Position numbers and translations under genes: made by a program. DNA of 64,000 nucleotides from NCBI GenBank assembly GCA_026397015.1, contig JAPLVR010000006.1:96001-160000 (forward strand). The letters run 5' to 3'. The notes beneath the pieces were generated by a model. The model was not told the DNA's origin. It ran no database searches and saw only the letters and a program-made list of their open reading frames with translations. Of the stretch, positions 1-57,518 are shown piece by piece. This DNA comes from Candidatus Iainarchaeum sp. Lineage in GTDB: Archaea > Iainarchaeota > Iainarchaeia > Iainarchaeales > JAAZKV01. Position 1 is the stretch's first letter. Every line of letters begins with the position of its first letter.

Positions 1-839
1 ATTTCATCAAGGGTAAGCTGTTTTTTGAACCCCAAACGGGCAACTTCCTTGAAGTAAGTCTGAATTATTTTGAAAGCAATCTCTTCTTCGCTCTCGCCCA
101 AAAGATTCTCCACTTCATCTCTTGAAACGGTTCGTGAACTCGAAATAACGGACTGCATTATTGAGCGTATTTGTGCAGGAGTAACGGCTTCGGAAGAAGT
201 CGAAATGGTTGTCGTCCTTCGAATTTTGGCTGGACGCACTTTGTGCACCCTGCGCACCCCCCTCACAATCTTTACAACTCTTTTAACCCTTCTCCTTTTA
301 GGTTTGATAATAATCTTTCTTGTTCTGTATCTCAACTTGGTAATAACCCTCGGCTTGGATTTTATATTCCTTGTTCTGTATCTCAACTTAGTAATAACCC
401 TCGGCTTGGATTTTATCCTTCTGACCTTAACAACCGTTTTCGTAACAGTCCTGGTTTTGCCTTTCCTGCCAAGCTTGCCTGCTTTTGCAAGCCTCCACAA
501 CGCAACCGCCTGCTTGAAGGTCTTTCCCAAACGCATCTGGGAACCGATGAATTGATTGTAGGCGGAAGGCCTTCGCTTGGTTTTGTTCAAAAGAGCTTTG
601 TATTTGTTCCACTCTTTTACGGCTTTCGCAAAGGTGGCGCCCGCAAGTATCTGCCTTTTAATAAAAAAATTGTATTCTGAAACGTGCTTTGAAGGCATTT
701 TCTTTTTTTTCTTCAATTTTTCTATTTCAACTTTAAGTTTGTTAATCTCCTTCCCCTGTTCCGCGGTTTTCTTCCGCGCCTTCACAGCCGCTTTCTTCGC
801 AGATTTTATTTCCTTCCTGCCCTTCCTGTCAACAGCCAA
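1..839 (-). CDS. Highly basic putative nucleic-acid-binding protein with two HMG-box/YABBY-like motifs (3' end runs off window)
   Basis: Not in the ORF track; translated by hand. TTG at 839 follows GGTGA and the frame stays open to base 1. Reads MAVDRKGRKEIKSAKK...SEYNFFIKRQILAGATFAKAVKEW...RPSAYNQFIGSQMRLGKTFKQAVALW... The + strand ORFs 70-555 and 577-921 are its antisense shadows. Confidence 0.8.
   Translation of the reverse strand, partial: MAVDRKGRKEIKSAKKAAVKARKKTAEQGKEINKLKVEIEKLKKKKKMPSKHVSEYNFFIKRQILAGATFAKAVKEWNKYKALLNKTKRRPSAYNQFIGSQMRLGKTFKQAVALWRLAKAGKLGRKGKTRTVTKTVVKVRRIKSKPRVITKLRYRTRNIKSKPRVITKLRYRTRKIIIKPKRRRVKRVVKIVRGVRRVHKVRPAKIRRTTTISTSSEAVTPAQIRSIMQSVISSSRTVSRDEVENLLGESEEEIAFKIIQTYFKEVARLGFKKQLTLDE
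319..416. repeat. Two-copy in-frame tandem repeat, 51-bp period (IKSKPRVITKLRYRTR)
   Basis: 319-365 and 370-416 are identical over 47 bp except one base. Confidence 0.9.
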
Positions 840-1037
840 ATCAATTCACCCGTACAAAATAAATTTTAGCTCGGGCTTAAAACGATGCCCGATAAAGTAT
901 CTCGACCAAAAGGGTATATAAAAGTTTCCTTTTAACTGGAAAAGGTGAATGGTCCGCATTTTGCAACTTTTTGCCATAGCTTTTTCGAAAACGACCGAAA
1001 TAGTGTTTTTTAAACAATCATTCCACAAATTGAAACC

Positions 1038-1184
1038 ATGAGCATAAAACCAAAGTGCGACAAATGCGGAAAGGAATTAACCGAATTCGGGGGCATCCTT
1101 TTTGGGCCGCCAAATAGAAACTCAAAAGTCAAAAAGCACCACTTGTGCAGGAAATGCTACAAAAAAATCGCTGCGGAACTTTAA
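1038..1184 (+). CDS. 48-aa zinc-finger-like protein (CxxC...CxxC)
   Basis: Below the ORF-track length cutoff. MSIKPKCDKCGKELTEFGGILFGPPNRNSKVKKHHLCRKCYKKIAAEL, ATG to TAA. Confidence 0.75.
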   Translation: MSIKPKCDKCGKELTEFGGILFGPPNRNSKVKKHHLCRKCYKKIAAEL

Positions 1185-1252
1185 AAAACAACAAAACCCA
1201 AAAAAACAGCCCAAAGGCAAAAGTTAAATACCAATAAAGAAATAATCCTTGC

Positions 1253-1933
1253 ATGCGGAGAATATTCAGGCGCGGAATCGCGCGCCCAAAAAAAAGGAAA
1301 TTTTTCAGAAAGGCGTTCAGGGCGATTGCCCTCGCCGGGCTGCTTGGCGCAACGGCGGGGTGCGCGCCCCCGCGAAACGCGATAATCATAAGGGGAAGGA
1401 TGGGGAAAGCCGCAGCCAAAAGGGAGCAAAAAGAACTCATTGAAAAGCTCGGGCTGGAAAGGACATGTATGCTTTACGAAAGGAAGGTGAAGCACGAGAT
1501 ACTTATGGATGAACTTAATAAGGAAAGCCGGGACATCATCAAAACGGAAAAGGAAAGCCAGGACATTATCAAAATGGAACAGGAACTTGGCAAATCAACA
1601 AGCCTAAAGAGGAAACTGAATGTGCTGGAAGAGAAATTTGAATTATTAAAAAGAAAATACCTAGAATACCAAGGCAGGTTCGAGGAAAAGGAGCAGAAGA
1701 TAATAACAAACATACAGGAGGGGCACTACATACTCCTTTACCCGGAAGAGTACAAAAAAGAACTCGGAAAATACGTGAAAGAAAATAAGCGCGAGCCGAA
1801 TGAAAACGAGCTGAAATCAATAGTGAAAAAGGCATCGTACCTGGCATGGCTTCAAGCGAGGGTTGCAGCCAAAAATGAATGGGAAGAATTCGTTCAATAT
1901 CTGATAAAAATCAACAAAAAAAAGGCTAAATAA
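1253..1933 (+). CDS. Hypothetical coiled-coil protein with basic N-terminus and lipobox-like signal
   Basis: 226 aa. RR-rich N-region, hydrophobic AIALAGLLGATAGC, then E/K-rich helices. Confidence 0.7.
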   Translation: MRRIFRRGIARPKKRKFFRKAFRAIALAGLLGATAGCAPPRNAIIIRGRMGKAAAKREQKELIEKLGLERTCMLYERKVKHEILMDELNKESRDIIKTEKESQDIIKMEQELGKSTSLKRKLNVLEEKFELLKRKYLEYQGRFEEKEQKIITNIQEGHYILLYPEEYKKELGKYVKENKREPNENELKSIVKKASYLAWLQARVAAKNEWEEFVQYLIKINKKKAK

Positions 1934-2013
1934 AATAACGGAAAAAAAATCCGGATAAAGGCTGCCGATAAAAAATAATTCCGTGCCGGCAAAATAAAAT
2001 AATCGGAAAAAAA

Positions 2014-3084
2014 TTACCTCGCCGCCTTCGAAATCAGCCTGGTAAACCCCCTTCCCTTTTGCACGCGCCGCGCCCTCAAAATTCCCTTTCCCTCCAAATC
2101 AGAAACCGCCTTGCGGAGGGTACGCTCCGAAAACTTCCTGCCAAGCGCCTTGTAAACCGCGCCAGCATCCACTTCCCCGCCCGCAACAAAGTTGAGGACC
2201 AAAAATTCCTGTTCCGAAAGGTTTTCCGCAATCTCGAACTTCACGGGTTTCTCCTGCATGAAAGAAGCGCGCACATGCTTCAACTGAACCTGCTTTGCGT
2301 TTTCCCTCTCCGCCAGGCGCGCCGCCTTCAGAAGCACTGTTATTGCTATCCGCGCATCGCCCCCGTTCTTTGCCGCGTGAGCGGCGCAAAGCGGAATCAC
2401 TTCGTTTTCGAGAGCGTTGCCGAAGAATGCGTACTGCGCCCTTTCCTTCAAAATCTCCTTCAATTCGATTGGTGAATACTTTTCAAATGAGAGGTGCGAC
2501 GCCTGGAGCGAACTTCTCACCCTTTCGTCAATTGCGGAAAGGAAGAAGGCGTCGTTGGAAATGAAAACCATCCCGAGGAAAAGGCCCTTTTCCTCGCCAA
2601 GCCTGGAAAAATCATAAAGCAGTTTTTTTGAATCATCCGTTTTCAGCAGCTGCTCGGCCTCGTCAAAAACGATTATCGGAATGACTTTTTTCGATTTGAG
2701 AAGCGCGACAAGCCTTTCATAAACCTCTTCGCTTCCAAGCCCCCTTTCCGGCACCGGATAGCCTAAAGAGTTGACCGTTTTAACAAGAATCCCGTTGCGG
2801 GTGGATTTTTCAAAGCAATTAATGTAAACGCATTTCGCCCTGTCTGAAAACTCCTCCAATTCGTGAAGCACATATTTCAGGGTAACGGTTTTTCCGGTTC
2901 CGGGAAAACCCGAAACAAAAATATTGCCCGGCTTTCTGCCCATGGTTGCCGGCTTCAGCGCAAAAACAAGTTCGCTTATTTCCCTTTCACGGAAAGGAAG
3001 CCTCTCCGGAACAAACTCCGGATAAAGATAGCGCTCGTCTTTAAGTATTCCTTTTTCATCTGACTTTTCAAAAGGATTCGCCAT
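2014..3084 (-). CDS. cdc6: Orc1/Cdc6 replication initiator AAA+ ATPase
   Basis: FVPERLPFRE, Walker A GFPGTGKT, YINC, GDARIAI sensor-2, C-terminal winged-helix-like region. Confidence 0.93.
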   Translation of the reverse strand: MANPFEKSDEKGILKDERYLYPEFVPERLPFREREISELVFALKPATMGRKPGNIFVSGFPGTGKTVTLKYVLHELEEFSDRAKCVYINCFEKSTRNGILVKTVNSLGYPVPERGLGSEEVYERLVALLKSKKVIPIIVFDEAEQLLKTDDSKKLLYDFSRLGEEKGLFLGMVFISNDAFFLSAIDERVRSSLQASHLSFEKYSPIELKEILKERAQYAFFGNALENEVIPLCAAHAAKNGGDARIAITVLLKAARLAERENAKQVQLKHVRASFMQEKPVKFEIAENLSEQEFLVLNFVAGGEVDAGAVYKALGRKFSERTLRKAVSDLEGKGILRARRVQKGRGFTRLISKAAR

Positions 3085-44631: not shown

Positions 44632-46236
44632 TTATTTTATTGCTTTTGACATGTAAGGACCTTTCTTTTTATAACTAAAATTTTTTCTATAATATTCTTT
44701 CACGCCTGGGCCGGAAATGACAACAATCTTGTTAGAATCAAATTTTTCTTTCGCGATTCTTTCAGCCTCCCCCATCAACAACTTTCCAATCCCCTGATGC
44801 TGCGTGCTTTCGCCGCTTCTTTTTCCGAGCGGAAGCGCTTTACCATAAACATGCAGCTCCCTAACCAATGCTGTTTTCGAATCGATTTCTTTCCTAAAAG
44901 GTTCAAACGGTTTTCTGAGCCGCAAAAAACCAAACAACGCATCCTTTGATTCAAAGGAAACAAAAGCCTCTTCGCCGCCGCTTGCTTGATAAAATTCAGA
45001 CATTAATTTTGCTTTTGAAAACTCGCCGGCACCGATTTTTTCATCATACAACTTTAAACCCGCTTCCCTGCACCTGATACAGGCGCATTTTTTTCCGCCG
45101 AAACGAAGCTCTTCCCGCACAAGCTGCCTTAGATTTGTTTTTTTGATGCCTGCAGAAATAACATTGCTCGGAATATCCCTGTTGACACGCATGACACGAA
45201 CCCATTTCGGCAATTCTGATTTTATCCGCGCCAGCATTCTAACGGCTTTCTTTTCTTCAATCGGGAAAAAATTGCCTTTTAGCCATTCGTCATAAAGTTT
45301 AGTTCCTTCCATCACCAGGCACGGATAAAATTTTACCATATCCGGCTTAAAACGCGCATCGTGAAAAATATTTCTGAAATTTTTCAAATCTTTTTTGTAA
45401 TCACTTCCTGGCAGGCCGGGCATCAAGTGATAAAGAATTTTGAAGGCGGAATCTTTCAAAAGGCGGGTTGATTCAACAACATCTTCTACTGAATGGCCGC
45501 GGTTTATCGCCTCATAAATTTCATTGTCTGGATTTTGGACTCCCAGTTCAACTCTCGTGCCCCCGAGGGAAAGCATTTCACTTATCTCTTTTTTTCCGCA
45601 CAAATCCGGCCGGGTTTCAAAAGTAATTCCAATAATTCTCCGCTTGGAATGTTCGGCGTTCAAAAGCGCGGCTGAAAGATTTTCCGATTTTTTTTCCGTC
45701 ACCGCATCAATGCTTTTTTTCAAAATAGAAACCTGCTTTCGGCGCGGGAGAGCGGTGAAGGAACTTCCCTGAAAAATAAGCTCGATTTTTTCCGCAAAGT
45801 TTCCGGTCGCGTCAAGCTGCAGTATTCTGTTTGAAACTATTTTATACGGGTCATAATTTAGGCGCTGCGCCCTCAGTGCGCTCGGCTCGAAACCGGTATA
45901 TGATTGCGGAGCCTTCTTGCCCGCAAACGCAGACGGACAATAAATACATTTTCCGGGGCAAGGAAAAGGAGGCATCATAACAGCAATTACCTGGACGCCT
46001 GAAAGGGTGCGCGTCGGCTTTATTGAGAGAAGCGAAAGGACTTTTTTCGACGGTTTTTTTGCAAATGAAAGTACAAACGGATTTGAAGGCATTTCATCGA
46101 GATGCGATTTCTCACTCCAAAAAAATTTCCGCGCACTCAAATCCTTCTGCGAATTAATTTTGCCTGAATTGATTTCTTCAATCATGCGCAACGCGAATTC
46201 GGTGCGCCTCGCTAAGCCGCCTTTTTTGAAGACCAT
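44632..46236 (-). CDS. elp3: Elp3 tRNA U34 carboxymethyltransferase (radical SAM + KAT)
   Basis: KPTRTLSG, CPGKCIYCP, ETRPD, ELGVQ, VRELHVYG, QHQGIG. Confidence 0.96.
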   Translation of the reverse strand: MVFKKGGLARRTEFALRMIEEINSGKINSQKDLSARKFFWSEKSHLDEMPSNPFVLSFAKKPSKKVLSLLSIKPTRTLSGVQVIAVMMPPFPCPGKCIYCPSAFAGKKAPQSYTGFEPSALRAQRLNYDPYKIVSNRILQLDATGNFAEKIELIFQGSSFTALPRRKQVSILKKSIDAVTEKKSENLSAALLNAEHSKRRIIGITFETRPDLCGKKEISEMLSLGGTRVELGVQNPDNEIYEAINRGHSVEDVVESTRLLKDSAFKILYHLMPGLPGSDYKKDLKNFRNIFHDARFKPDMVKFYPCLVMEGTKLYDEWLKGNFFPIEEKKAVRMLARIKSELPKWVRVMRVNRDIPSNVISAGIKKTNLRQLVREELRFGGKKCACIRCREAGLKLYDEKIGAGEFSKAKLMSEFYQASGGEEAFVSFESKDALFGFLRLRKPFEPFRKEIDSKTALVRELHVYGKALPLGKRSGESTQHQGIGKLLMGEAERIAKEKFDSNKIVVISGPGVKEYYRKNFSYKKKGPYMSKAIK

Positions 46237-48181: not shown

Positions 48182-49702
48182 AACAAGCGAAAGCACTTTG
48201 TCCGGTTGGAAATAATAATCCTGTATCACTTCAAGCACTTCAGAAGGCTTCCTTATTTTTTGTTCGAGCATCCATTCCAAGACTTTTTGCCGCATCAGCA
48301 TTTCCTGTTTCAACTCGTTCTTTGAAATGCCGTTTGCATTCGCCATTTTTTCTATTATATAACTAGGACAATCCGTACGTTTTATTGCCCCAATATTTTT
48401 ATCAAACTCAAATACATTTGCAAGCAAAACTTTGCTCTCCATCCTCGAAACTTCCGCCACCTGCAAAACATTCCTTTGCATTCCGCCGTCCTTCAAATGA
48501 TGCCGCCCCAAAACAACAATCAAATCAATCAGCGGAAGCAAACCCTGAGGAACTGACATCGGGGGTTCCTGCAGGCGGATAATGGCTTCCCTGGAATCGT
48601 TTGCGTGAATCGTGCCCATTACCCCGTCATGGCCGGTATCCATCGCAACAAACATTGTAAGAGCCTCTTTCCCCCTTACCTCCCCAACAATAATTCTGTC
48701 TGGGCGCATTCTCAAAGAATTTCTTAACAAATCATCTATCTGAATCTCATCGCCGGCGGAATGCCTCGCCTCCATTGGAACCCAGTTCGTTCGCCCAAAA
48801 AGTGCAAGCTCAAGGGTGTCTTCGATTGAAATTATCCGCTTGTTGATTCTCACAAAATTTGCAAGCACATTCAGAAAAGTGGTTTTTCCTGTTGCGGTGC
48901 CGCCTGTAATCAAAATATTTGCAGGAGTAACATCAAAGCCGTCAACCATCGTCCATAGGAAAGCGGCGAGCTCTGAATTCAACATTCCGCCCTCAATCAA
49001 ATCAATTATGGTAAGGGGCGTTGGAGAAAATTTTCTTATTGTGAGGGAAGTTCCATGCGGAGAAATATCTGAAATGGTTGCATTGACCCTGCTTCCATCC
49101 GGAAGGCGCGCATCAAGCAACGGATTTTTCGAATCAAATGTTTTTCCGACGCCGGAGGCAATGCGCTGAAGTATTACCTCGAACGATTTCTCCTCGAGCA
49201 CAACGTTTGTTTTGCACATGCCGTACTGCTTATGAAAAACAAAAATGCTATCGGAACTATTAACCATCAACTCTTCAAGAGAATCATCGAGCAAAAAGAA
49301 GGCGAACTGCCTAAGCCCTATTGAGTTTTGCAAAGCCATCCCTGCAAAAAGCTCCCTATTGCCTATGAACTTTATAGGCTCGAGAATTTTTGTGAATGCA
49401 TAAAAAAGGTCAGAAAAAATTTTGTTGGACGGAAGCCTCTCAAGCAGGGAATTTATTTCAACGAGCGAAACAACCTCCTCCCTAAAGACCGAGGAAAACT
49501 CTTCGCCGACGCCCTCAAATTCTGAGAGCTCCCTGAAAGAGGACTTCCTTTGTATCACCCTTTCAAGAAGGTCCATAAATGCCTGTTCTTTCTTTGCAAA
49601 AGGAAGCTGCTTTATTTCGTAAAAATTCTGCGGAAACCCTTCATAAACATCGCCAAATGGGGATGAAGCCAGTTTTTTTCCTTTTGATTCATTGAGGGGC
49701 AT
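48164..49702 (-). CDS. Second CpaF/VirB11 family secretion/pilus ATPase
   Basis: DARLPDGSRVNA, GGTATGKTT, IEDTLEL, RMRPDRIIVGEVRG, DTGHDG. Confidence 0.92.
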   Translation of the reverse strand: MPLNESKGKKLASSPFGDVYEGFPQNFYEIKQLPFAKKEQAFMDLLERVIQRKSSFRELSEFEGVGEEFSSVFREEVVSLVEINSLLERLPSNKIFSDLFYAFTKILEPIKFIGNRELFAGMALQNSIGLRQFAFFLLDDSLEELMVNSSDSIFVFHKQYGMCKTNVVLEEKSFEVILQRIASGVGKTFDSKNPLLDARLPDGSRVNATISDISPHGTSLTIRKFSPTPLTIIDLIEGGMLNSELAAFLWTMVDGFDVTPANILITGGTATGKTTFLNVLANFVRINKRIISIEDTLELALFGRTNWVPMEARHSAGDEIQIDDLLRNSLRMRPDRIIVGEVRGKEALTMFVAMDTGHDGVMGTIHANDSREAIIRLQEPPMSVPQGLLPLIDLIVVLGRHHLKDGGMQRNVLQVAEVSRMESKVLLANVFEFDKNIGAIKRTDCPSYIIEKMANANGISKNELKQEMLMRQKVLEWMLEQKIRKPSEVLEVIQDYYFQPDKVLSLVSKHFS

Positions 49703-49781
49703 AAGACATCGCTTATATATAAGGAAAAGTAGTATAATAATTTTAGTTTTGAATAAAACAGGTTTTATTGGGGGTGAATGC

Positions 49782-51146
49782 ATGAAACCACTGTACCAAA
49801 GTGTTTTGAAAAAATTTACTCCTGCTCAAAGGGAGCTAGCGCTGGAGAAGGCGCTCGTCGAAAAAATAAGAGAAAAAATCGAAAACATCGAAGGAAAACA
49901 TTCGCATATCGAGTGGTGCGGAAGCTCTGCAAGAGGAACCCATCTTCGCGGAGACAGGGACATCGATTTATTTGTGATGTTCGACCAAAAAATTTCAGAC
50001 ACTGAATTGGAAAAAGAAGGTTTGCGGATTGGAAAAGCGGTTTTCAGGGGAAAAAAGTGGAAAAAAGCGTATTCACAGCATCCTTACATACGCGGAACAT
50101 TAGAAGGGTTTGACGTTGAAATAGTTCCAAGCTACATTGTCGAACACGGGCATTTAAAGAAAAGCGCGGTGGATAGGACACCTTTCCACAACAGGTGGCT
50201 CCTCCAAAGGCTTAATGAAAAGAAGCAAAAAGAAATTAGGCTTCTGAAACAATTCATGAAAGGAATCAACGCTTACGGTGCAGACCTGAAAAACAACGCG
50301 CTGCCGGGGTACGGAATTGAACTGCTTGTAACAACTTACGGAACTTTTGAGAACGCGATAAAACAAATCGCTTCATGGAAGCCCGGAAAAATAATTTCAT
50401 TCGGCGCGGATGAAAAAATTGCGAAAGAAAACTTCAAAGGGGCGCCGCTAATACTAATAGACCCTGTAGATGAAAACAGAAACGTGGCTTCGGCGCTATC
50501 CCTTGAACAATTCGAAAGAATGATTCTCGCCGCAAAACTTTTCCTAAAAAAACCCTCTGCGAAATTCTTCTTCGGTGCGAAAACCGAAAAATGGCCGAAA
50601 GAAAAAGTTGAGAAAATGCTCAAGAAAACGGAAATAATTTCAATAAAAGGAAAATTTCCTGCAACGATTTTGCCGGATTTAATCTGGGGACAGCTGGCGC
50701 GCTACGAAAAAAAAGTTTCAACCCATTTGAAGGAAAAAGACTTCTCAATTATTAGAAGCGCGCACTGGAGCGACGAAAAAGACGTTTTTTTCCTCTTTGA
50801 ACTGGAAGCGCTTGAACTGCAGAAAGCGAAAAAAATAACCGGACCTTTTGCAAGCGATTCCGAGAATGCGAAAAGATTTTTGGAGAAAAAAAGAAAAATA
50901 CTTTCCGGGCCGCGCGTCGAAAACGGGAGGCTTGTGCTGGAAATCGAGCGGAAAGAAGAGGAAACTTCCGCGAAAAAAATACTCGAAAAGTTTTTGAAAA
51001 AAAGCAAATGCGAGGAGAAATCAGGGATAAGGATTTGCATCAAAAGCGCGAAAGTGCTGGCTGAAAAGGACTTGCTCCGCGAATACAAGGGGAAATTCGC
51101 CGAATATTTCACGCTTTATCTGGGCGGAAAAGAGGTTTTTGAATAA
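49782..51146 (+). CDS. cca: CCA-adding enzyme (class I)
   Basis: GSSARGTHLRGDRDIDLF, HPYI, SAVDRTPFH, IDPVDENRNVASA. Confidence 0.96.
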   Translation: MKPLYQSVLKKFTPAQRELALEKALVEKIREKIENIEGKHSHIEWCGSSARGTHLRGDRDIDLFVMFDQKISDTELEKEGLRIGKAVFRGKKWKKAYSQHPYIRGTLEGFDVEIVPSYIVEHGHLKKSAVDRTPFHNRWLLQRLNEKKQKEIRLLKQFMKGINAYGADLKNNALPGYGIELLVTTYGTFENAIKQIASWKPGKIISFGADEKIAKENFKGAPLILIDPVDENRNVASALSLEQFERMILAAKLFLKKPSAKFFFGAKTEKWPKEKVEKMLKKTEIISIKGKFPATILPDLIWGQLARYEKKVSTHLKEKDFSIIRSAHWSDEKDVFFLFELEALELQKAKKITGPFASDSENAKRFLEKKRKILSGPRVENGRLVLEIERKEEETSAKKILEKFLKKSKCEEKSGIRICIKSAKVLAEKDLLREYKGKFAEYFTLYLGGKEVFE

Positions 51147-51168
51147 GTGGATCTTGGTGGGATTGCAC
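51146..51168 (-). repeat. Degenerate copy of the tRNA-Ala 3' end (att-like island boundary)
   Basis: AGTGGATCTTGGTGGGATTGCAC vs 52647-52669 AGTGGACTCTGGGGGAATCGAAC: 16/23 identical, ungapped. Confidence 0.45.
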
Positions 51169-51209
51169 ACTTGGCATATTGCCTGTTCATAAAATTGGTT
51201 TTATTTTGG

Positions 51210-52274
51210 TTATTTCAGCAATTCATAAATACAATGCATATTTCCTTCCCTCATTACCCAGCAGCCCCCAAAACATGAATATTTGCTTTTGCAGGCTGCA
51301 CACTTCGGATCGGCCTCAATTATGCTTCGACTCCGATACCTCCTGAAGCCGTTTTTCCAGATTTCTAAAAAAGGCTTTTCAATTGCAGAACCCTCCCTAT
51401 ACTTGGGAATATCCGGCTGCTCTGGACAACCCCTAACATTTCCGTCGACACCTATACAACAGGCAGTAAATCCTATGGTGCACACAAGTGGCTCGCTTCG
51501 TATTCTTGTCTCATACTCTGCCAAAAAAGGCAGGTTTTCGCCAATTTTTATGATTAATTTTCCTTTGTTACTTGATTTTACAAATTCAAAAAGTTTTTTC
51601 AACTCTGCAGGAGCTAGAAGAAGTTTTTTGGTCTGTGCCCTGCCTATTGGCATAACAACCGTAATTCTCCAAAGCCTGACATTTAACTCTAAAAGGATTT
51701 TAAGAAGCTTTTCAAGTTCATTTATGTTGCCGGGCGTAACTGTAGTTGCAACAGAAACAATCGGCACATTCCTTTCCTTCAACAATTTTATTGCATTTAT
51801 TGCCTTTTGATAGCTCTGCGAATTTCCACGGATCTTATTGTGTGTTTCTTCTGGACCGTCTAGGCTTATCTGAACAGAAGAAACACCTGCTTCTTTTATT
51901 TTGCTGGCCATTGCCGCATCAATAAAAAAACCGTTTGTGGCAATTCCGGTATCAATCCCCTTTGTTTTAGCGTATGACAGGATGCTCAGCAAATCGGTCC
52001 TCAACAGAGGCTCCCCGCCCGTAACTGCAAAAAACCCGACTCTTAATTCGGCAAGCTCGTCAATTATTTTTTTTATTTGGGGTTCGGTAAGTTCCTCTGA
52101 ATATTTTTCCTTTGTGGCGCCGCAATGTGCACAGTGGAGGTTGCACTTTCTTGTACAGTCCCACAAAACATAGTAGGGCGGATAAATTTTTCCCGTCCTG
52201 CTCAGCGTATTATTGAAACTGTCAAAAAATATTTGATCCCTTATCTCCGCAAAAAAATATCTCAGATTGAACAT
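51210..52274 (-). CDS. Radical SAM/SPASM peptide maturase (splicease-like)
   Basis: WDCTRKCNLHCAHC, TGGEPLLR, ISLDG, WRITVVMPIGRA; SPASM cysteines CTIG..CC..DGNVRGCP..CAAC..CFGGC. Confidence 0.9.
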   Translation of the reverse strand: MFNLRYFFAEIRDQIFFDSFNNTLSRTGKIYPPYYVLWDCTRKCNLHCAHCGATKEKYSEELTEPQIKKIIDELAELRVGFFAVTGGEPLLRTDLLSILSYAKTKGIDTGIATNGFFIDAAMASKIKEAGVSSVQISLDGPEETHNKIRGNSQSYQKAINAIKLLKERNVPIVSVATTVTPGNINELEKLLKILLELNVRLWRITVVMPIGRAQTKKLLLAPAELKKLFEFVKSSNKGKLIIKIGENLPFLAEYETRIRSEPLVCTIGFTACCIGVDGNVRGCPEQPDIPKYREGSAIEKPFLEIWKNGFRRYRSRSIIEADPKCAACKSKYSCFGGCWVMREGNMHCIYELLK

Positions 52275-52304
52275 ATAACAGAAAATAAGCCCTAAATATT
52301 TAAA

Positions 52305-52565
52305 CTACTTTGGAGGCGCTGGACCGTATTCTATCATAGTATTGGGCGGAGCAGGACCATAAGATACCATTGTGCTTGGAAGAATTACAAACAACAATAT
52401 AATCCCGGGAACAACAAATGTAAGTATTATTCCAAAAATTAAAAATATTTTCTTCTTTGTTTTGAGATATTTTTTAAGGCTGAATACGCCCCCGATTATG
52501 GAAGCGAAAAAAAGAATGACAGCTAATATCAAATATATTTCCATTTGTATGTTTAGGGCAACCAA
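52305..52565 (-). CDS. Two-TM membrane protein with C-terminal tandem TMxxYGPAPP repeats (putative rSAM substrate)
   Basis: Ends ...TMVSYGPAPPN-TMIEYGPAPPK; 30 bp upstream of the rSAM gene on the same strand. Confidence 0.8.
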   Translation of the reverse strand: MVALNIQMEIYLILAVILFFASIIGGVFSLKKYLKTKKKIFLIFGIILTFVVPGIILLFVILPSTMVSYGPAPPNTMIEYGPAPPK

Positions 52566-52648
52566 CTATATAAATATTCCTAAACTTTTTGGCGGATTAC
52601 GAATAATTGCTTTTACAACTTAAAACTTAATAAAATTGAATATTACAG

Positions 52649-52720
52649 TGGACTCTGGGGGAATCGAACCCCCAATCCCGACCATGCGAAGGTCGTGCCT
52701 TACCGTTAGGCCAAGAGCCC
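52649..52720 (-). tRNA. tRNA-Ala(CGC)
   Basis: Cloverleaf with acceptor GGGCTCT/AGAGTCC (G3:U70), anticodon arm CGACC-TTCGCAT-GGTCG, T-loop TTCGATT. Confidence 0.95.
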
Positions 52721-52722
52721 AA

Positions 52723-53244
52723 TCAAAATTCCGCCTCTTCCATATCAATATCAAGCAATCCTTCATTATCCTCCTTAAACACAAACTTTCCTTTTACTTT
52801 TTTGTTGCACAAAACAACTGGCAGCCAGTGCCTGTCATCCTGCCACATTTTATCAAACGGAATCTTTTTCACATGCGTCCAAATCGGTTTCATCTCCTCG
52901 CTCTCTTTAGGCTCGCCCTCCCAATCGCGCACCAAAAAAACATGGACCACCTGGTCCCAGTGCCACTTCTTATCTTCAGGGATTGATGGGAAAATAAATG
53001 TAAGCTCTGCCATTTTTTCAATATTTTCCGGATATGCATTCAATCCCGCCTCCTCCCACAGCTCACGGATGATCGCTTCCTCGACCGATTCCCCGTCTTC
53101 AACCTTTCCTCCAAAGCCGTTCATCTTTCCGCTTCCAAAACCCCTTTTTTTCATCCCGAGCAAAACATGCTCCACCGGGTCGCCCTTCACCAGAAAGCAG
53201 AGTGTCGCCTGCTTCAACCCCTTGTTGTCAATTTTTTTGCCCAT
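52723..53244 (-). CDS. NUDIX hydrolase, 8-oxo-dGTPase (MTH1-like)
   Basis: KKRGFGSG..NGFGGKVE..ESVEEAIIRELWEEAGL, ESEEM, MWQDD. Confidence 0.92.
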   Translation of the reverse strand: MGKKIDNKGLKQATLCFLVKGDPVEHVLLGMKKRGFGSGKMNGFGGKVEDGESVEEAIIRELWEEAGLNAYPENIEKMAELTFIFPSIPEDKKWHWDQVVHVFLVRDWEGEPKESEEMKPIWTHVKKIPFDKMWQDDRHWLPVVLCNKKVKGKFVFKEDNEGLLDIDMEEAEF

Positions 53245-53276
53245 AACAATACCTGTAAAAACCCTTTCTAAATCAC

Positions 53277-53879
53277 CTATGAAAAAACTTTTACATTGAG
53301 CTTTTCCAAATCTTTCTTCAACTGATTGTGATCCTTGTAGTGAATCACATTCATTCCAAGCTTTTTGGCGGGCACAAGATTTACTTCTTTGTCATCAATA
53401 AAAACTATTTTTTGGGGGGCAACGCCAAGCTCCTTCAGCGCAAATTCATAAAACTTCATATCTGGCTTCCTTAAGCCAATTTCTGCCGAGTTAAATATTT
53501 TTGAGAAAAAAGAGACATCCGCCTGACCAACAGAATGCGCCATAAACTCTATTGAGTTGTTCGAAAACCCTGCTAATTTGTATTTTTTCGAAACCTTTCT
53601 GTAAAATTCAATATTTTCGTGCAGGGGAACAATTGTTGCCAAAACTTCTTTTCTCAATTCTTCAATCGATTCATTTGTCCCAAGATTTTTTGCGACAACC
53701 CCCAAAAATTCCTCTTCGCCAATTTTTCCGGTTTCGTACCTGCGCCAATGCTCTCCCTTAAATGAAGAAAAAACCTTTTCTTCATTCAACCCTTTTTTCG
53801 CTTTATACCTTTCAGAAAATCCGGGAAAAATGTCGCTGAAAACAACCCCTCCAAAATCCGTCAAAATCACTTCGATCAT
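53277..53879 (-). CDS. HAD family phosphatase
   Basis: DFGGV, SNN, KPD, FIDD motifs. Confidence 0.9.
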   Translation of the reverse strand: MIEVILTDFGGVVFSDIFPGFSERYKAKKGLNEEKVFSSFKGEHWRRYETGKIGEEEFLGVVAKNLGTNESIEELRKEVLATIVPLHENIEFYRKVSKKYKLAGFSNNSIEFMAHSVGQADVSFFSKIFNSAEIGLRKPDMKFYEFALKELGVAPQKIVFIDDKEVNLVPAKKLGMNVIHYKDHNQLKKDLEKLNVKVFS

Positions 53880-53972
53880 CTTTCCACCGTGGCAATTCCA
53901 CAAAATTACTGAAAACAAGCCTTTTTTAGATTTTGTTTTTGAAAAATAATCAATAAAAATAAGAACGGCGGG

Positions 53973-54836
53973 CTAATTGTCCCCCTTTAAGGCAATTACC
54001 GCGCTGCCGGCCAAAACGAGAACGCCCCCGATGACAACTATTCCTGATGGAATGCTGACCGCGAAAATAAGTGAATAAATGAGGGCGAAGGTTGCCTCGT
54101 TGATTTTTATTGCAGTGGCGTAAGCCAGCTTTATCTCTTTCAAGCCTTTATAGAAAAGGGTCATTCCGATTACGACGCTTAAAGCAGACCCAAAAAAAAT
54201 CAAACCTGCCTGTTCGATTGAGGGGATGACGAACGGCTGGCCCGTAAATAACAGAATGGGAATCGCAAAAAAAATTGCTGAAAAAGTCCTGATGGCGTTC
54301 ACTACAAACGGCGTGGAGTTCAGAGACGCCTTTTTGGCCGAAAGGTATGCAAGCGAATAAAAAAATGCCGATAGAATCCCAAAAAATGTGCCCCCGGAAA
54401 CCAAAAGCGTCTTGTCAAAATTCATCAGTGTGGCGCCGGCCAATACCACTATGATGCCGCCCATTTTGAACCTGTTCAATGTTTCCCTGAAAAAAATAAA
54501 CCCGAACAATGCCGAAAAAACGACCATGGATTGGACCAGCAGCGCGGTGGCGCCCCCGCCGACCAGCGAAATGCCTAACAAGGAAAAAAAAGTTGCAAGT
54601 ATATTAAAGAAGCCGGACAGGACCATCTGTTTTTTTCCGCGAGCAGAAAGCAATTCCTTCCTGTAAAAACAGATGCCGATTGGAAGAAGAAGCAGCCCTC
54701 CGAAAAAAAACCAGTAAAAATTCACAATTTGGGGAGAGAGGCTCTGGACCAACAGGCTGCTTATCACCCAAAAAGTTCCCAAAAAAGCGGCCGAAAGAAA
54801 AACGTAAAAGGCACCGGCCAAAGAAGTCCTATCCAT
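53973..54836 (-). CDS. DMT/EamA family transporter
   Basis: About 10 TM helices in two repeats; FFRE motif. Confidence 0.88.
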   Translation of the reverse strand: MDRTSLAGAFYVFLSAAFLGTFWVISSLLVQSLSPQIVNFYWFFFGGLLLLPIGICFYRKELLSARGKKQMVLSGFFNILATFFSLLGISLVGGGATALLVQSMVVFSALFGFIFFRETLNRFKMGGIIVVLAGATLMNFDKTLLVSGGTFFGILSAFFYSLAYLSAKKASLNSTPFVVNAIRTFSAIFFAIPILLFTGQPFVIPSIEQAGLIFFGSALSVVIGMTLFYKGLKEIKLAYATAIKINEATFALIYSLIFAVSIPSGIVVIGGVLVLAGSAVIALKGDN

Positions 54837-54880
54837 ACAACCAACAAATAAAACAAAAGTTTATATCAATAAGCAGGCAG

Positions 54881-54988
54881 TTTTTGCCAGCGCTTTTTTC
54901 GCCAGCCTTTTTTTCAAAAGGGCAAGTTCGCTATCAGCGAACACATTTTTGCCAGCGTTTTTTCGCCGGCCTTTTTTCTAAAAAGGCC
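54881..54988. repeat. Pair of palindromic repeats separated by a hairpin
   Basis: TTTTTGCCAGCG..TTTTTCGCC(A/G)GCCTTTTTT..AAAAGG at 54881 and 54946; spacer GTTCGCT-ATC-AGCGAAC. Confidence 0.75.
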
Positions 54989-55972
54989 GAATGCAGCCGC
55001 CGGGACTCTTTTCCTGTTGGCTGGTAGTTTGAGGTTGGTTGTTTGTAGAGGGGTGCATTCGAATCCGTTCTGATTGATTTACCTTTCCTTCCATTTAATC
55101 AACTCCTTTATTGAATTAAGCCAATAAAAACACAATTTTCTTTATCATAAGCAATTGCTCCGTCAGTATAGCTCGAATTTAACATTATTTCTCTGTGACC
55201 AGTGGTGCTTCCCATCCACAAACTTAATGCCCTTATACAATTTGACCCGGCAATATTTTCCCCAGAACTATACCCTGACCTCAAAATTATTCCAAAGCGG
55301 CTAACATAATCATCAAAATATTTCCCATCAGAATCTTGATGATCACAACGTGTATAATTACAAAGATCCTTAGACGCTTGAAATTTTACCAATTCATAAA
55401 TCTTGTCATTCCATTTTAGCCGCATTAAGCCATTCTCTTCCCGGATATCATTAAGCTCTTCAAAACTTTCGACATCAATTTCTTTTTGCGATTTACTTGG
55501 TTGGCTTATCACAATTTCTACTAAATCGGGTTCACTTATTGGATCACTTTGATTATCATTCACCAAATCATTTTCAATCGGGTTATTGTTATCCAAGAAA
55601 GGTTGGCTATTAGAATCAATTTCTTGATTAGGGTTCATTTTTATTTGCAACAATAAATACGCCCCAAATGTAACAAGCACTAATAATATTATACAAGCAA
55701 AAATTGTTTCAGCATGGGGAAATGAACTCATACCGTGCGCTATTTTAATATGGGTTCTTGGGCGAGGGTTAAATCTATTGTGTCTTTTTTGAACAGAATA
55801 ATGATAATTGCACAAGCCTGAAGAGAAATACTTCCATTTAGCTATTTTTTTTCCACATCTTTTGCAATGATAACTCATTCAAATCAACTCTTATGTTTAG
55901 AACAGGTATTCGCACCCACTACAGACTCAAAACTACCAACTAATTGAATGCAGCCGCCGGGGCTCGAACCCG
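54989..55972. mobile_element. Integrase-less mini-island bounded by tRNA-3'-end direct repeats and inner inverted repeats
   Basis: GAATGCAGCCGCCGGG(A/G)CTC at 54989-55008 and 55946-55965; imperfect IRs at 55022-55071 and 55899-55938; AT-rich cargo. Confidence 0.65.
55108..55878 (-). CDS. CAP/SCP domain protein with N-terminal Zn-finger-like motif and TM helix
   Basis: CKRC...CNYH; TM helix; LNDIREENGL..L.W, GENIA, WMGSTTGHREIML. Confidence 0.85.
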   Translation of the reverse strand: MSYHCKRCGKKIAKWKYFSSGLCNYHYSVQKRHNRFNPRPRTHIKIAHGMSSFPHAETIFACIILLVLVTFGAYLLLQIKMNPNQEIDSNSQPFLDNNNPIENDLVNDNQSDPISEPDLVEIVISQPSKSQKEIDVESFEELNDIREENGLMRLKWNDKIYELVKFQASKDLCNYTRCDHQDSDGKYFDDYVSRFGIILRSGYSSGENIAGSNCIRALSLWMGSTTGHREIMLNSSYTDGAIAYDKENCVFIGLIQ

Positions 55973-55996
55973 AAGCAATCTTTTTTTGTACCATTA

Positions 55997-56068
55997 TGCG
56001 GCTTACGGGAATTGAACCCGTTCATCCACCTTGGGAAGGTGGAATCATAACCGTTAGACCAAAGCCGC
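55997..56068 (-). tRNA. tRNA-Gly(CCC)
   Basis: Acceptor GCGGCTT/AAGCCGC, anticodon arm CCACC-TTCCCAA-GGTGG, T-loop TTCAATT. Confidence 0.93.
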
Positions 56069-56077
56069 CCTAAACTT

Positions 56078-56152
56078 ATTTTCGCCAGCCTTTTGGAAAA
56101 AGGCACGCCTGCAAAGCAGGCAATTTTTTGCCGGCTTTTTTCTAAAAAGCCG
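56078..56152. repeat. Second pair of palindromic repeats with hairpin spacer, between tRNAs
   Basis: TTTCGCCAGCCTTTTGGAAAAAGGC and TTTTGCCGGCTTTTTTCTAAAAAGCCG; spacer GCCTGC-AAA-GCAGGC. Confidence 0.75.
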
Positions 56153-56154
56153 AA

Positions 56155-56243
56155 CGGGCCTAGAGGGAATCGAACCCCCATCCCAAGATCTCTTCACATT
56201 AAAATTCCGAAGTCTTGTCGGCTATCCATTACCACATAGGCCC
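56155..56243 (-). tRNA. tRNA-Arg(TCG) with 17-nt intron at 37/38 (56190-56206)
   Basis: Acceptor GGGCCTA/TAGGCCC; CAAGA-CTTCGG^A-TCTTG; BHB motif with CTTC/GAAG helix and 3-nt bulges. Confidence 0.92.
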
Positions 56244-56271
56244 CTTGAAAGAATAATTCGCCGCGCTATTT

Positions 56272-57192
56272 TTAATCTTTGGGTAAGGGCACATTCAGAT
56301 TGTTCATCAAGGCCAGTCGCCTGCCAACTATTTTTGGCAAAATTTTTTCCGAATCGATAACTGGACCCTCATAAAATTCATTTGGATTAACAACCCCTGA
56401 TAAAATATTCTTTTGATTTTTGAGAACCAGATTTGGCGGCATAAAACCAAATCTTTTCCAAATCAAAAATCTGTTGTATTTCATATTATTTTTGAAGCCA
56501 ATATTGTGCATCCACAGAATGATGTTCTGATCACCCATTATTGACAGCCTATAAGAATCGTGATTAATTGGGCCCTTTATTTGGCGAGACATCGAAAACT
56601 GAAACCCAGTGTTAATTAAAAGTTTTCCAACACCATCGCATAATTCTTTTGAACAAATGCCCACACAAATAATAGGATATGTGTGCCGCTTCTTATGAAT
56701 TTCTCTATAACCTGACCCGCCCCTTTTTTTGAAATAAATTGTGCCATCTGTATCAAATAACCCTCTTAAAAAACCATAAATAACATCCAAATTCCTCGAA
56801 TTGAGAATTTGTTCTGGAATAGCCACTGTCAAAGTTTTCTTCCCATATGGAAAGCCCTGAGAGTGCATAAATTCGCACACTTTTCTGTTGCAAATCAGAA
56901 ACCCATAAGTATTTCTGTGAGGAAAAAATTTTGGTTTTATTTTAATACCAAAAACCCTTTCAAATAACGGAACAACGTGTTCATCGTAATATTCTTTTTC
57001 GTCAACATTACCGCTTATGTCAAGTTCGAAATGCCTGTTGTTGCGATTCCGCAAATATCCGTCGCCCGCATGAATGCCGCAAACTTCTGCCAAGTCCGGC
57101 GTCATTTCAAGATTCAAAGTTGACTCGCCCAAAGAATTTTGATTCAGCAATTTAAAACTGTTTTGTGAGTTTGATGCCGGTGATGGATTCAT
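56272..57192 (-). CDS. Free-standing LAGLIDADG (DOD-type) endonuclease-like protein
   Basis: Two motifs, LAEVCGIHAGDG and FLRGLFDTDG. Confidence 0.88.
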   Translation of the reverse strand: MNPSPASNSQNSFKLLNQNSLGESTLNLEMTPDLAEVCGIHAGDGYLRNRNNRHFELDISGNVDEKEYYDEHVVPLFERVFGIKIKPKFFPHRNTYGFLICNRKVCEFMHSQGFPYGKKTLTVAIPEQILNSRNLDVIYGFLRGLFDTDGTIYFKKRGGSGYREIHKKRHTYPIICVGICSKELCDGVGKLLINTGFQFSMSRQIKGPINHDSYRLSIMGDQNIILWMHNIGFKNNMKYNRFLIWKRFGFMPPNLVLKNQKNILSGVVNPNEFYEGPVIDSEKILPKIVGRRLALMNNLNVPLPKD

Positions 57193-57425
57193 TCCACCAC
57201 CTCATCATCAAAATCGTCTTCAGAATTCTCCGATACATATTCGAGAATCCAGAGTTCTCTCGAATCCAAGAGTTCCGGGCAATTCCTTGCCAACTTCTTT
57301 ACTGATTTTATTTCCTCTTCTGAGGGAACAAGACAATCATCAATATTAGAAAAAACCATTTGAGCCACCTCCGCAAAAAAATTCCAAGAGCGGAGGTGGC
57401 AATGGCTTTCATTTGACGCAATCAT
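57189..57425 (-). CDS. Small acidic hypothetical protein
   Basis: Overlaps the LAGLIDADG start (ATGA); true start likely ATG 57359 after GGAGG. Confidence 0.45.
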   Translation of the reverse strand: MIASNESHCHLRSWNFFAEVAQMVFSNIDDCLVPSEEEIKSVKKLARNCPELLDSRELWILEYVSENSEDDFDDEVVE

Positions 57426-57518
57426 TTAATAATTCTGGCAAAAGGCATCTGAAAGGCTTATTAAAGGTTTCTTTCAAGAAAATTGTTAAAGTTTTTTGAG
57501 AGCTTGCTGGTGAGCGGA

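Follow-up and report, generated by a model that had tools for sequence, protein, structure and literature searches.

The 64,000-nt stretch of DNA studied here (referred to as the window) comes from Candidatus Iainarchaeum sp. (assembly GCA_026397015.1, contig JAPLVR010000006.1, positions 96,001-160,000) and encodes, on its minus strand, a small membrane protein and, directly downstream, a radical S-adenosylmethionine (SAM) enzyme with a SPASM domain. The C-terminal tail of the small protein, called the partner below, carries two copies of a short core built around a tyrosine. The pairing of the two genes is real and rare, and they strictly co-occur. In all nine loci in which the enzyme is at least 48% identical to that of the window, the window itself included, a small membrane protein with a tyrosine core is encoded directly upstream on the same strand. 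The sequences make it probable that the enzyme acts on the tyrosine of the core or cores in the partner's tail. From the same data we infer that the small protein is the substrate and the tyrosine the site, as well as the moment at which the modification would take place.

Conservation of the gene pair

The eight enzymes from outside the window are 48-61% identical to the window enzyme. Three of these loci were taken from species genomes (L003-L005), four from metagenomes (L014-L017), and one (L094) was reached through a sample of the phylum of the L004 genome. With coordinates as taken, the gap between the partner and enzyme genes ranges from none to a few tens of base pairs and is widest in L003. 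The original prediction, made from the window sequence alone, had proposed to look for small YG(P) proteins next to homologues of the enzyme; each of the nine close loci carries a small protein with a tyrosine core.

As a control, we used loci encoding distant radical SAM enzymes (at most 31% identical; 67 fetched, four dropped for having less than 400 bp upstream). None of the 146 upstream same-strand open reading frames (ORFs) of 35-200 aa in these 63 loci matched the pattern [MVILFA][VIMALF]xY[GMA]P, and in 14 of the loci the dipeptide YG occurred somewhere in upstream ORFs. Two distant loci with enzymes in the 28-31% identity range may be mentioned separately: L038 has a 101-aa upstream ORF (254-559, plus strand) containing ..IMYGPPSHY.., and L028 has an upstream lipoprotein (1896-2411, plus strand) containing ..TAYGVMYS...

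An exhaustive representative search returned 687 clusters at E <= 1e-30, of which a handful were at least 46% identical to the window enzyme, several of them fragments; the enzyme clade is therefore small. The closest named relatives of the enzyme stem from records with the titles Micrarchaeota and Nanobdellota, and together with the genomic context they suggest a host of the DPANN type. The clade is sparsely distributed as well. In the phylum of the window, five of 215 genomes, all subject to incompleteness, had a match at E <= 1e-40; one of these is the window's own genome and the other four matches are 30-41% identical. The one genome of the same genus gave no match at that threshold, again with the proviso that the genomes are incomplete. 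In a sample of the phylum of the L004 genome, three of 401 genomes matched at E <= 1e-50, two of them with close relatives.

Architecture of the two genes

The enzyme gene is located at 51210-52274 (minus strand) and encodes 354 amino acids, in which Pfam, NCBIfam, AlphaFold2 and Foldseek indicated no RRE domain, the recognition element for peptides that are made by the ribosome and then modified post-translationally (RiPPs). The partner, or candidate substrate, gene at 52305-52544 (minus strand) encodes 79 amino acids from an ATG at 52544 to a stop codon at 52305-52307. The original prediction described the partner as a protein with two transmembrane helices that ends in two YGPAPP repeats and lies 30 bp upstream of a radical SAM/SPASM gene; the ORF list and the reading of the minus strand bear this out. 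Its stated length of 86 aa agrees with the ORF-list form (52305-52565, minus strand), which starts from a TTG at 52565, but the shorter 79-aa form is more likely. We prefer the ATG because a TTTATATA box about 26 nt upstream of it overlaps the TTG, and because the 79-aa form is the one found in the protein collection (P0001). This TATA-like box, read from the sequence at 52567-52574 (minus strand) and centred about 26 nt upstream of the ATG, is a putative promoter in an AT-rich region, and its position suggests a leaderless or short-leader transcript for the partner gene. The 30-bp intergenic spacer (52275-52304, minus strand) holds TTTAAATA about 26 nt upstream of the enzyme ATG.

Hydropathy and alignments place the first transmembrane helix of the partner at residues ~3-23 (52476-52538; this and the following features are on the minus strand) and the second at residues ~33-55 (52380-52448), with L35, G38 and L41 invariant. 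The helices are connected by the lysine-rich loop KKYLKTKKK (residues 24-32, 52449-52475), which is predicted to be cytoplasmic and whose Y26 is present in at least 90% of the aligned rows. The first core, TMVSYGPAPPN, spans residues 58-68 (52341-52373), with Tyr62 encoded at 52359-52361 and Pro64 at position +2 relative to the tyrosine. The second, TMIEYGPAPPK, spans residues 69-79 (52308-52340) with Tyr73 at 52326-52328, so that in minus-strand translation the C-terminus reads ...PSTMVSYGPAPPNTMIEYGPAPPK. The partner has no lipobox and appears as a two-helix hairpin; it matched no NCBIfam model and hence not TIGR04134, a lipoprotein model that becomes relevant below.

The two copies of YGPAPP are encoded by TAT GGT CCT GCT CCG CCC and TAC GGT CCA GCG CCT CCA. 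Five of the six codons differ, all five synonymously, as the original prediction had noted. In a simple model, the chance that five random differences among 18 positions all fall on third positions is P = 6/8568 = 7e-4. Because all five codon differences are synonymous, the sequence argues that selection acts on the YGPAPP peptide. The core motif is also not a chance feature of the 898-kb genome: when all 6365 six-frame ORFs with 40 or more aa (655,884 residues) were scanned with the pattern [MVILFA][VIMALF]xY[GMA]Px[PED], there were two matches, both in the window partner.

The partner family and its core motif

To describe the partner family we assembled 33 proteins: 29 of 65-111 aa that were found with a profile of eight partners at E <= 0.1, and four read directly from loci. 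Two have labelled sources, namely Patescibacteria (P0006) and Pacearchaeota (P0025). All members have the same architecture, in which a loop rich in Lys/Arg connects two hydrophobic helices. In an alignment of 25 rows, G19 and Tyr62 are invariant along with the helix 2 residues mentioned above, and Pro64, like Y26, is present in at least 90% of rows. No fused or longer partner forms were found at E <= 0.01 among proteins of 196-2000 aa, which is weak evidence, and Protein Atlas structure matches for the homologue P0006 were generic two-helix hairpins with scores below 0.9.

The core occurs in 32 of the 33 partners and twice in 15 of these, which gives 47 cores; in L003 a long linker rich in Pro/Ser/Thr lies between the first copy and the second. 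Cores were counted as matches to Y[GMA][PA], so the tyrosine and the allowed letters at +1 and +2 are fixed by the pattern. Within these limits, position +1 is Met in 23 cores, Gly in 18 and Ala in 6, and position +2 is Pro in 45 and Ala in 2. Pro is found at +4 in 41 of 46 cases. Ahead of the tyrosine, position -2 is always Met, Val or Ile, and position -1 is variable (V, E, T, S, A, I, D, L).

The residue following the tyrosine differs between sister enzymes on the tree: the L003 partner has YG and that of L014 YM, and the partners of L004, L016 and L017 have YA, YM and YG, respectively. Because of these flips, the +1 position looks like a tolerated one and not like a marker of different chemistry. 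The original prediction had treated YG as the conserved site. This holds for the window, where the cores read SYG and EYG, but the core counts across the family indicate that XYG is not its conserved unit.

Relation to TIGR04133 and other radical SAM families

The best of 86 NCBIfam matches of the enzyme was TIGR04133, with 223.5 bits over model positions 5-343 of 350, against a cut-off of 425. Six other enzymes of the window clade that were scanned also had TIGR04133 as best model, with 170-220 bits. The next scores of the window enzyme were MftC (TIGR03962) 155.3, AhbD 152.2, TIGR04053 147.5, NirJ2 142.8, TIGR04103 135.2, TIGR03913 120.6 and PqqE 117.4 bits. The models of the cofactor enzymes did not reach their cut-offs either (265 for MftC, 500 for AhbD and NirJ2, 381 for PqqE). 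The resemblance to TIGR04133 that the original prediction suggested is thus found as the top match, though below the cut-off for membership. Its two other suggestions fared less well: TIGR03913 scored only the 120.6 bits given above, and TIGR04103, which we take to be the model holding PlpX, ranked sixth with a score far from its cut-off of 725. The sequence motifs it had quoted for the enzyme are present.

Trees were built from 109 candidate rows, first as a quick tree of 63 rows and then as a careful tree of 50 hand-picked rows (LG+G4), with L025 and a paralog from the window's genome (L002) left out. The careful tree was rooted on AhbD/MftC-like proteins, and none of its rows is an enzyme validated as a splicease or as a cyclophane synthase. 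The window clade (14 rows) received support values of 98/91 and a sister clade of 11 rows, including L010 and L018, 98/97; the two join at 89/88. Both stand beside a group of 17 rows that contains the true TIGR04133 enzymes (100/99). The outgroup is made up of eight proteins that score best with AhbD, followed closely by MftC (94/85; including L011, P0042 and P0052). The groups tested in this tree were read off the 63-row quick tree, which makes the test partly circular. A quick tree with a site-mixture model kept all four groups (90, 99, 90 and 99), with long-branch warnings. Grouping with cofactor-biosynthesis enzymes, which would have spoken against the original prediction, was not observed, as the enzyme stood apart from the Ahb/NirJ/MftC-like outgroup. 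By sequence, the enzyme belongs to a clade of its own, related to TIGR04133 but outside TIGR04133 proper, since its score is below the cut-off, its clade is separate and a TIGR04134 partner is missing.

The paralog left out of the trees is a second radical SAM/SPASM-like protein of 375 aa in the window's genome (L002, G000:C4:22983-23945, minus strand); it is 31% identical to the window enzyme and no tyrosine-core partner was seen near it.

The true TIGR04133 enzymes provide the closest comparison. Three of them scored 581.5 (L019), 570.8 (L021) and 551.1 bits (L026), and upstream lipoproteins matched TIGR04134 with 99.8 (L019), 119 (L021), 99.7 (L026) and 62.6 bits (L020). All ten lipoprotein-like ORFs in the eight loci L019-L026 have a YG that follows the lipobox cysteine at a distance of a few residues up to about 35, mostly in the form [E/K]-Y-G-[T/V/C/D]-P. 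Like the window cassette, the TIGR04133/TIGR04134 system is a two-gene unit with the small gene upstream, an enzyme without RRE, and a membrane-anchored partner with a tyrosine motif close to the anchor. The systems differ in that the TIGR04134 partner is a lipoprotein whereas that of the window is a two-helix hairpin with a C-terminal tail, and in that the core is Y-[M/G/A]-P-x-P in the window family and Y-G in the lipoproteins. Their hosts differ as well: those of the window clade are labelled DPANN archaea and Patescibacteria, whereas the lipoprotein system belongs to Bacteroidota. In the genome of the window, TIGR04134 gave only 16.9 bits inside a 2356-aa frame, which was taken as chance. 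Two loci have two tandem YG lipoprotein-like genes upstream of a single TIGR04133 enzyme (L024, 1584-2483, and L026, 923-1623, both plus strand); the second lipoprotein-like ORF of L026 did not match TIGR04134.

TIGR04133 and TIGR04134 are NCBIfam 'hypothetical equivalogs' with names that convey no function. A literature search yielded no publication on the function of the pair, and Scott et al. (2022), which lies outside that search, may already count the TIGR04133 clade among the spliceases. The designation TIGR04134 was encountered in the literature for an unrelated type IX secretion C-terminal domain. The portions of the literature on SPASM enzymes in DPANN archaea that were available deal with tetraether lipids and graspetides and contain nothing on this system.

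In the sister clade the partner takes another form. L010, from a genome of the window's order and with an enzyme 41% identical to that of the window, has a multi-helix partner (969-1400, plus strand) with the sequences PMYGV, PMYGV and EYGV. The partner of L018 (439-840, plus strand) is a homologue of that of L010 (29% identical), has VYEQ at the aligned site and continues with a Cys-rich tail. Across the wider group, the constant element seems to be a tyrosine near a membrane anchor, with a hydrophobic residue ahead of it.

Domains and modeled structure of the enzyme

Pfam assigned Radical_SAM (PF04055, 108.1 bits, cut-off 29.5), SPASM (PF13186, 27.1 bits, cut-off 21.5) and Fer4_12 to the enzyme. 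The segment C40-x3-C44-x3-C48-x2-C51 (52122-52157, minus strand) includes the radical SAM cluster motif C44/C48/C51, which is invariant in 50 sequences, and C40, an extra cysteine that is invariant in the four closest enzymes. In the SPASM region (residues 265-348, 51231-51482, minus strand), C325, C328, C334 and C348 are invariant in the 50 sequences and C265 and C283 are present in at least 90% of them, whereas C272, C273 and C338 were found to be invariant in the four closest enzymes.

An AlphaFold2 model based on the 50-sequence alignment had a mean predicted local distance difference test score (pLDDT) of 95.6 and a predicted template modeling score (pTM) of 0.93, and contained no separate recognition domain. 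The best solved Foldseek matches were SkfB, SuiB, CteB, anSME and PqqE, with template modeling (TM) scores of 0.64-0.74, all of them SPASM enzymes that modify peptides or proteins; a sequence search of the Protein Data Bank (PDB) agreed with this placement. No splicease structure was among the Foldseek matches. Ahead of the cluster motif, the model has an aromatic-rich N-terminal helix (residues 4-27, 52194-52265, minus strand). It stands where other peptide maturases have their RRE, and one may speculate that it has a role in substrate capture.

Two characterized enzymes help to place these similarities. anSME modifies a Cys or Ser in the motif C/S-x-P-x-R, and the modified protein is exported afterwards. 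Like the window enzyme it is a SPASM enzyme without RRE and a structural match (TM score 0.68-0.70), but the sequence match is only 37.7 bits, the target is Cys/Ser versus a candidate Tyr here, and its substrate is itself an enzyme whereas the candidate substrate of the window is a small membrane protein. The target-x-Pro layout and the order of modification before export may nevertheless be read as parallels to the mechanism proposed below. MftC, the second-best NCBIfam model, acts on the tyrosine of a C-terminal Val-Tyr according to the portion of the source that was available. That target is C-terminal whereas the tyrosines of the window are internal, and no mycofactocin genes were among the ten neighbours scanned.

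Predicted topology and proposed mechanism

Charge distribution was used to predict the orientation of the partner. In 25 partners, the loop has on average 4.76 K/R per ten residues and is strongly basic in all 25, with 6 K/R in the loop 10-mer of the window; the tail has on average 0.28 K/R and 1.0 D/E, and the N-terminus none. A K/R-rich loop together with the positive-inside rule predicts that the loop is cytoplasmic and, therefore, that the tail is outside the membrane. The cytoplasmic lysine loop and outward-facing tail of the original prediction fit this pattern. The partner of L005 is built differently, with a signal-peptide-like N-terminus followed by the core (..VIIYGPPE..) and a C-terminal helix with a basic end. 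The hairpin, the combination of signal peptide and C-terminal helix, and the lipoprotein would all three put the core outside the membrane.

A sorting signal of the PEP-CTERM/archaeosortase type was considered for the L005 partner and rejected, as judged by eye, because some 25 residues separate the motif from the helix that follows. The L005 genome (G217) is about 0.7 Mb in size; its record is titled Gammaproteobacteria, a label that may be wrong. A NUDIX gene lies upstream of the pair in L005, as in the window.

On this basis we propose that the pair is a self-contained two-gene cassette in which a cytoplasmic enzyme would target the tyrosine of one or two [M/G]-[M/V/I]-x-Y-[M/G/A]-P-x-P cores. 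The enzyme probably works in the cytoplasm because it lacks a signal peptide and depends on SAM as well as on Fe-S clusters. The tyrosine would be modified after translation and before translocation of the tail. Since the tail is made last and must cross the membrane after synthesis, there would be a time slot in which the enzyme could act. The modified product would then be exposed on the outside of the membrane, where possible roles include attachment, protease inhibition and structural stiffening.

Several observations weigh against the enzyme acting on the tyrosine of the tail. With no leader in the partner and no RRE in the enzyme, the features through which peptide maturases usually recognise their substrates are missing. 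An outward tail and a cytoplasmic enzyme would require modification before membrane insertion, which is plausible. The 33 partners are mutually related, so that the core counts are not independent events, and one of them (P0029) lacks the core. In the sister clade, VYEQ of L018 has neither Gly nor Pro, so that the wider group shares the tyrosine alone. Finally, the strict pattern that matched none of the 146 control ORFs was written from true partners, and it misses the true case L017, which has Lys at position -3.

An alternative is that the small protein is not a substrate at all. It could be an anchor or accessory protein that recruits the enzyme to the membrane to act on a lipid or another protein, or the two genes could simply be co-regulated. 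A Pfam scan of the ten neighbouring proteins detected no RRE/PqqD, peptidase or exporter, in line with the original prediction that neither a PqqD/RRE protein nor a leader peptidase is adjacent, and the lack of leader, RRE, protease and exporter would suit a non-substrate role. Archaeal lipid-modifying radical SAM enzymes exist, GDGT-MAS being a weak PDB match to the enzyme (45.2 bits by sequence, TM score 0.50 by fold), and the lengths of the helices are better conserved than the tail. On the other hand, the Tyr-x-Pro cores are the most conserved part of the partner outside the helices, and they are duplicated in 15 of 33 proteins, including L003 with its linker. The predicted topology puts the tail across the membrane from the enzyme. 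Moreover, the tyrosine motif stays while the anchor changes from hairpin to signal peptide plus C-terminal helix, lipoprotein or three-helix protein, and the solved structures closest in fold belong to maturases of peptides and proteins. We therefore regard a non-substrate role as improbable, and the action of the enzyme on the tail tyrosine is retained as the working reading.

Candidate chemistries

If the tyrosine is the target, splicing is one possible outcome, which we hold to be less than an even prospect. A splicease, as proposed in the original prediction, would excise a tyramine equivalent (-135.08 Da, C8H9NO) at each tyrosine and leave an alpha-keto-beta-amide, and the cell may then display ketoamides on its surface, as that prediction also suggested. 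In the available parts of the literature, spliceases excise this unit at X-Y-G and join the flanking carbonyl carbons (PMC11414181, PMC9811515, PMC11626197, PMC10849128, PMC11002830, PMC10533398); the family is named IPR026482 in the part of PMC11002830 that was available. Scott et al. (Chem 2022), as far as summarised in the accessible text of PMC10849128, screened the neighbours of SPASM enzymes for YG richness. The known spliceases, PlpX with PlpY and the binary RhaX, RcsX and RasX, resemble the enzyme studied here in being SPASM radical SAM enzymes that act on a tyrosine with a variable preceding residue. The candidate substrate here is an integral membrane protein in which neither a leader of the Nif11/NHLP type nor an activating leader helix was identified.

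The cores of the window, SYG and EYG, agree with splicing. The splice sites given in the accessible text of five sources are XYG with variable X (PMC11414181, PMC9811515, PMC11626197, PMC11002830, PMC10533398), and position -1 varies here too. Published tags (..PIRP-L/G-YGLPI and ..AAGYGVV.. in the available part of PMC10533398) resemble the YG-x-P of the lipoproteins and the YGV of L010, and YG is strict in both of these partner types. Splicing needs no second reactive side chain, which fits a tail that conserves only Tyr and Pro and, in L018, only Tyr. According to the accessible passages, binary systems without a Y protein exist (PMC11414181), and leader-independent action of PlpXY on protein substrates is documented (PMC11414181, PMC9811515, PMC11626197, PMC10533398). 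TIGR04103 is the second or joint-second model for true TIGR04133 enzymes.

Other results disagree with splicing. Gly follows Tyr in only 18 of the 47 cores, against 23 with Met and 6 with Ala, and this residue flips between sister enzymes, whereas every site described in the available portions of the sources is XYG. For the window enzyme, TIGR04103 scored 135.2 bits against a cut-off of 725, below both MftC and AhbD, although the splicease types that have been published extend beyond this model. Neither a leader helix in the partner sequence nor a Y protein among the ten neighbours scanned was found.

A three-residue cyclophane of the triceptide type is a somewhat more doubtful candidate. In this case the tyrosine ring would be linked to the C-beta of residue i+2 (Pro64 and Pro75), with a mass change of -2.016 Da, to give a strained Tyr-x-Pro macrocycle that would stiffen the displayed tail. 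The pattern of conservation is suggestive: positions i (Tyr) and i+2 (Pro in 45 of 47) are conserved and i+1 varies between M, G and A, as in the i/i+2 links made by enzymes that form three-residue cyclophanes (3-CyFEs). The i+2 residue has a C-beta hydrogen in every partner examined (P, A, T, V, D, C or Q) and is never Gly. SPASM-type 3-CyFEs link Tyr C3 to the C-beta of Asp, Arg or, in a mutant substrate, Ala, according to the text available of PMC11002830; the same text holds no known example with Pro at i+2. Among the lipoprotein partners and in L018, conservation of the i+2 residue is lost, and the best 25 of the 86 NCBIfam matches include no 3-CyFE family name. The triceptide enzymes XncB, OscB, MscB, YxdB, YhhB and HaaB are SPASM enzymes that use an aromatic residue at i and the C-beta at i+2, and the Y-x-P of the cores, present in one or two copies per protein, agrees with this at the level of sequence pattern only. 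The precursors of triceptides are soluble and usually contain leaders and repeats, whereas the window partner is membrane-anchored.

Computation does not separate splicing from cyclophane formation. Another modification centred on the tyrosine is possible as well, and we give it a minority chance.

Genomic surroundings

The assembly comprises 898,628 bases in 6 contigs and is 85% complete. The cassette has a GC content of 0.37-0.41, similar to its surroundings, and there is therefore no sign of recent transfer. A tRNA-Ala gene lies directly upstream of the partner gene, and within 51000-57500 the Rfam hits were limited to three tRNAs. The genes around the cassette have housekeeping functions; they encode a CCA-adding enzyme (tRNA_NucTransf2 and CAA_C), NUDIX and HAD proteins, an EamA transporter, a T2SSE-type ATPase, LigT and an Elp3-like radical SAM protein. 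The last of these is encoded at 44632-46236 (minus strand).

Some features of the surroundings deserve separate mention. An 89-nt tRNA at 56155-56243 (minus strand) could not be assigned by ARAGORN (anticodon 'cg'), scored 47.9 bits with the Rfam tRNA model and may carry an intron; it adjoins a LAGLIDADG_3 ORF at 56272-57192 (minus strand). With the TTG listed as its start, the gene for the CCA-adding enzyme would overlap the beginning of the divergent T2SSE ATPase gene by about 90 bp (49692-49783), and translation more likely begins at an internal Met (..MKPLYQS..). At 55108-55878 (minus strand), a protein anchored in the membrane is encoded that has a CAP/SCP (cysteine-rich secretory protein) domain, uncommon in archaea. 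Short fragments identical to 51150-52650, without variants, were present in four DNA runs of a second study, which suggests that the organism also occurs outside the samples from which it probably came.

Implications

What is known of radical SAM peptide maturases comes almost entirely from systems with soluble, leader-bearing precursors, mostly of bacteria. The pair described here is unusual in that the candidate substrate is an integral membrane protein without leader, the enzyme lacks a recognition domain, the genomes of the hosts are tiny and the core deviates from XYG. A view that goes further, and that we consider unlikely enough to be offered as conjecture, is that ultra-small and probably episymbiotic cells of both domains (DPANN archaea and, by label, Patescibacteria) share a leaderless 'protein RiPP'. 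In such a system, a tail tyrosine would be rewritten before membrane insertion to give a genetically encoded electrophilic ketoamide or a strained cyclophane on the cell surface. Where the cell touches its host, this group might act as a covalent handle or trap proteases, and the TIGR04133/TIGR04134 system of Bacteroidota would be a lipid-anchored form of one shared invention.

That a 0.9-Mb genome retains the pair suggests that it is of use to the cell. The same design is found on three other anchors, i.e., a signal peptide with C-terminal helix, a three-helix protein and the lipoproteins of Bacteroidota, and this variety hints at a general strategy, so far uncharacterised, by which a modified tyrosine is put on the outside of the membrane. 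If the enzyme is active, this small and confidently modeled protein and its core of 8-11 residues could serve as a compact tag-and-enzyme pair.

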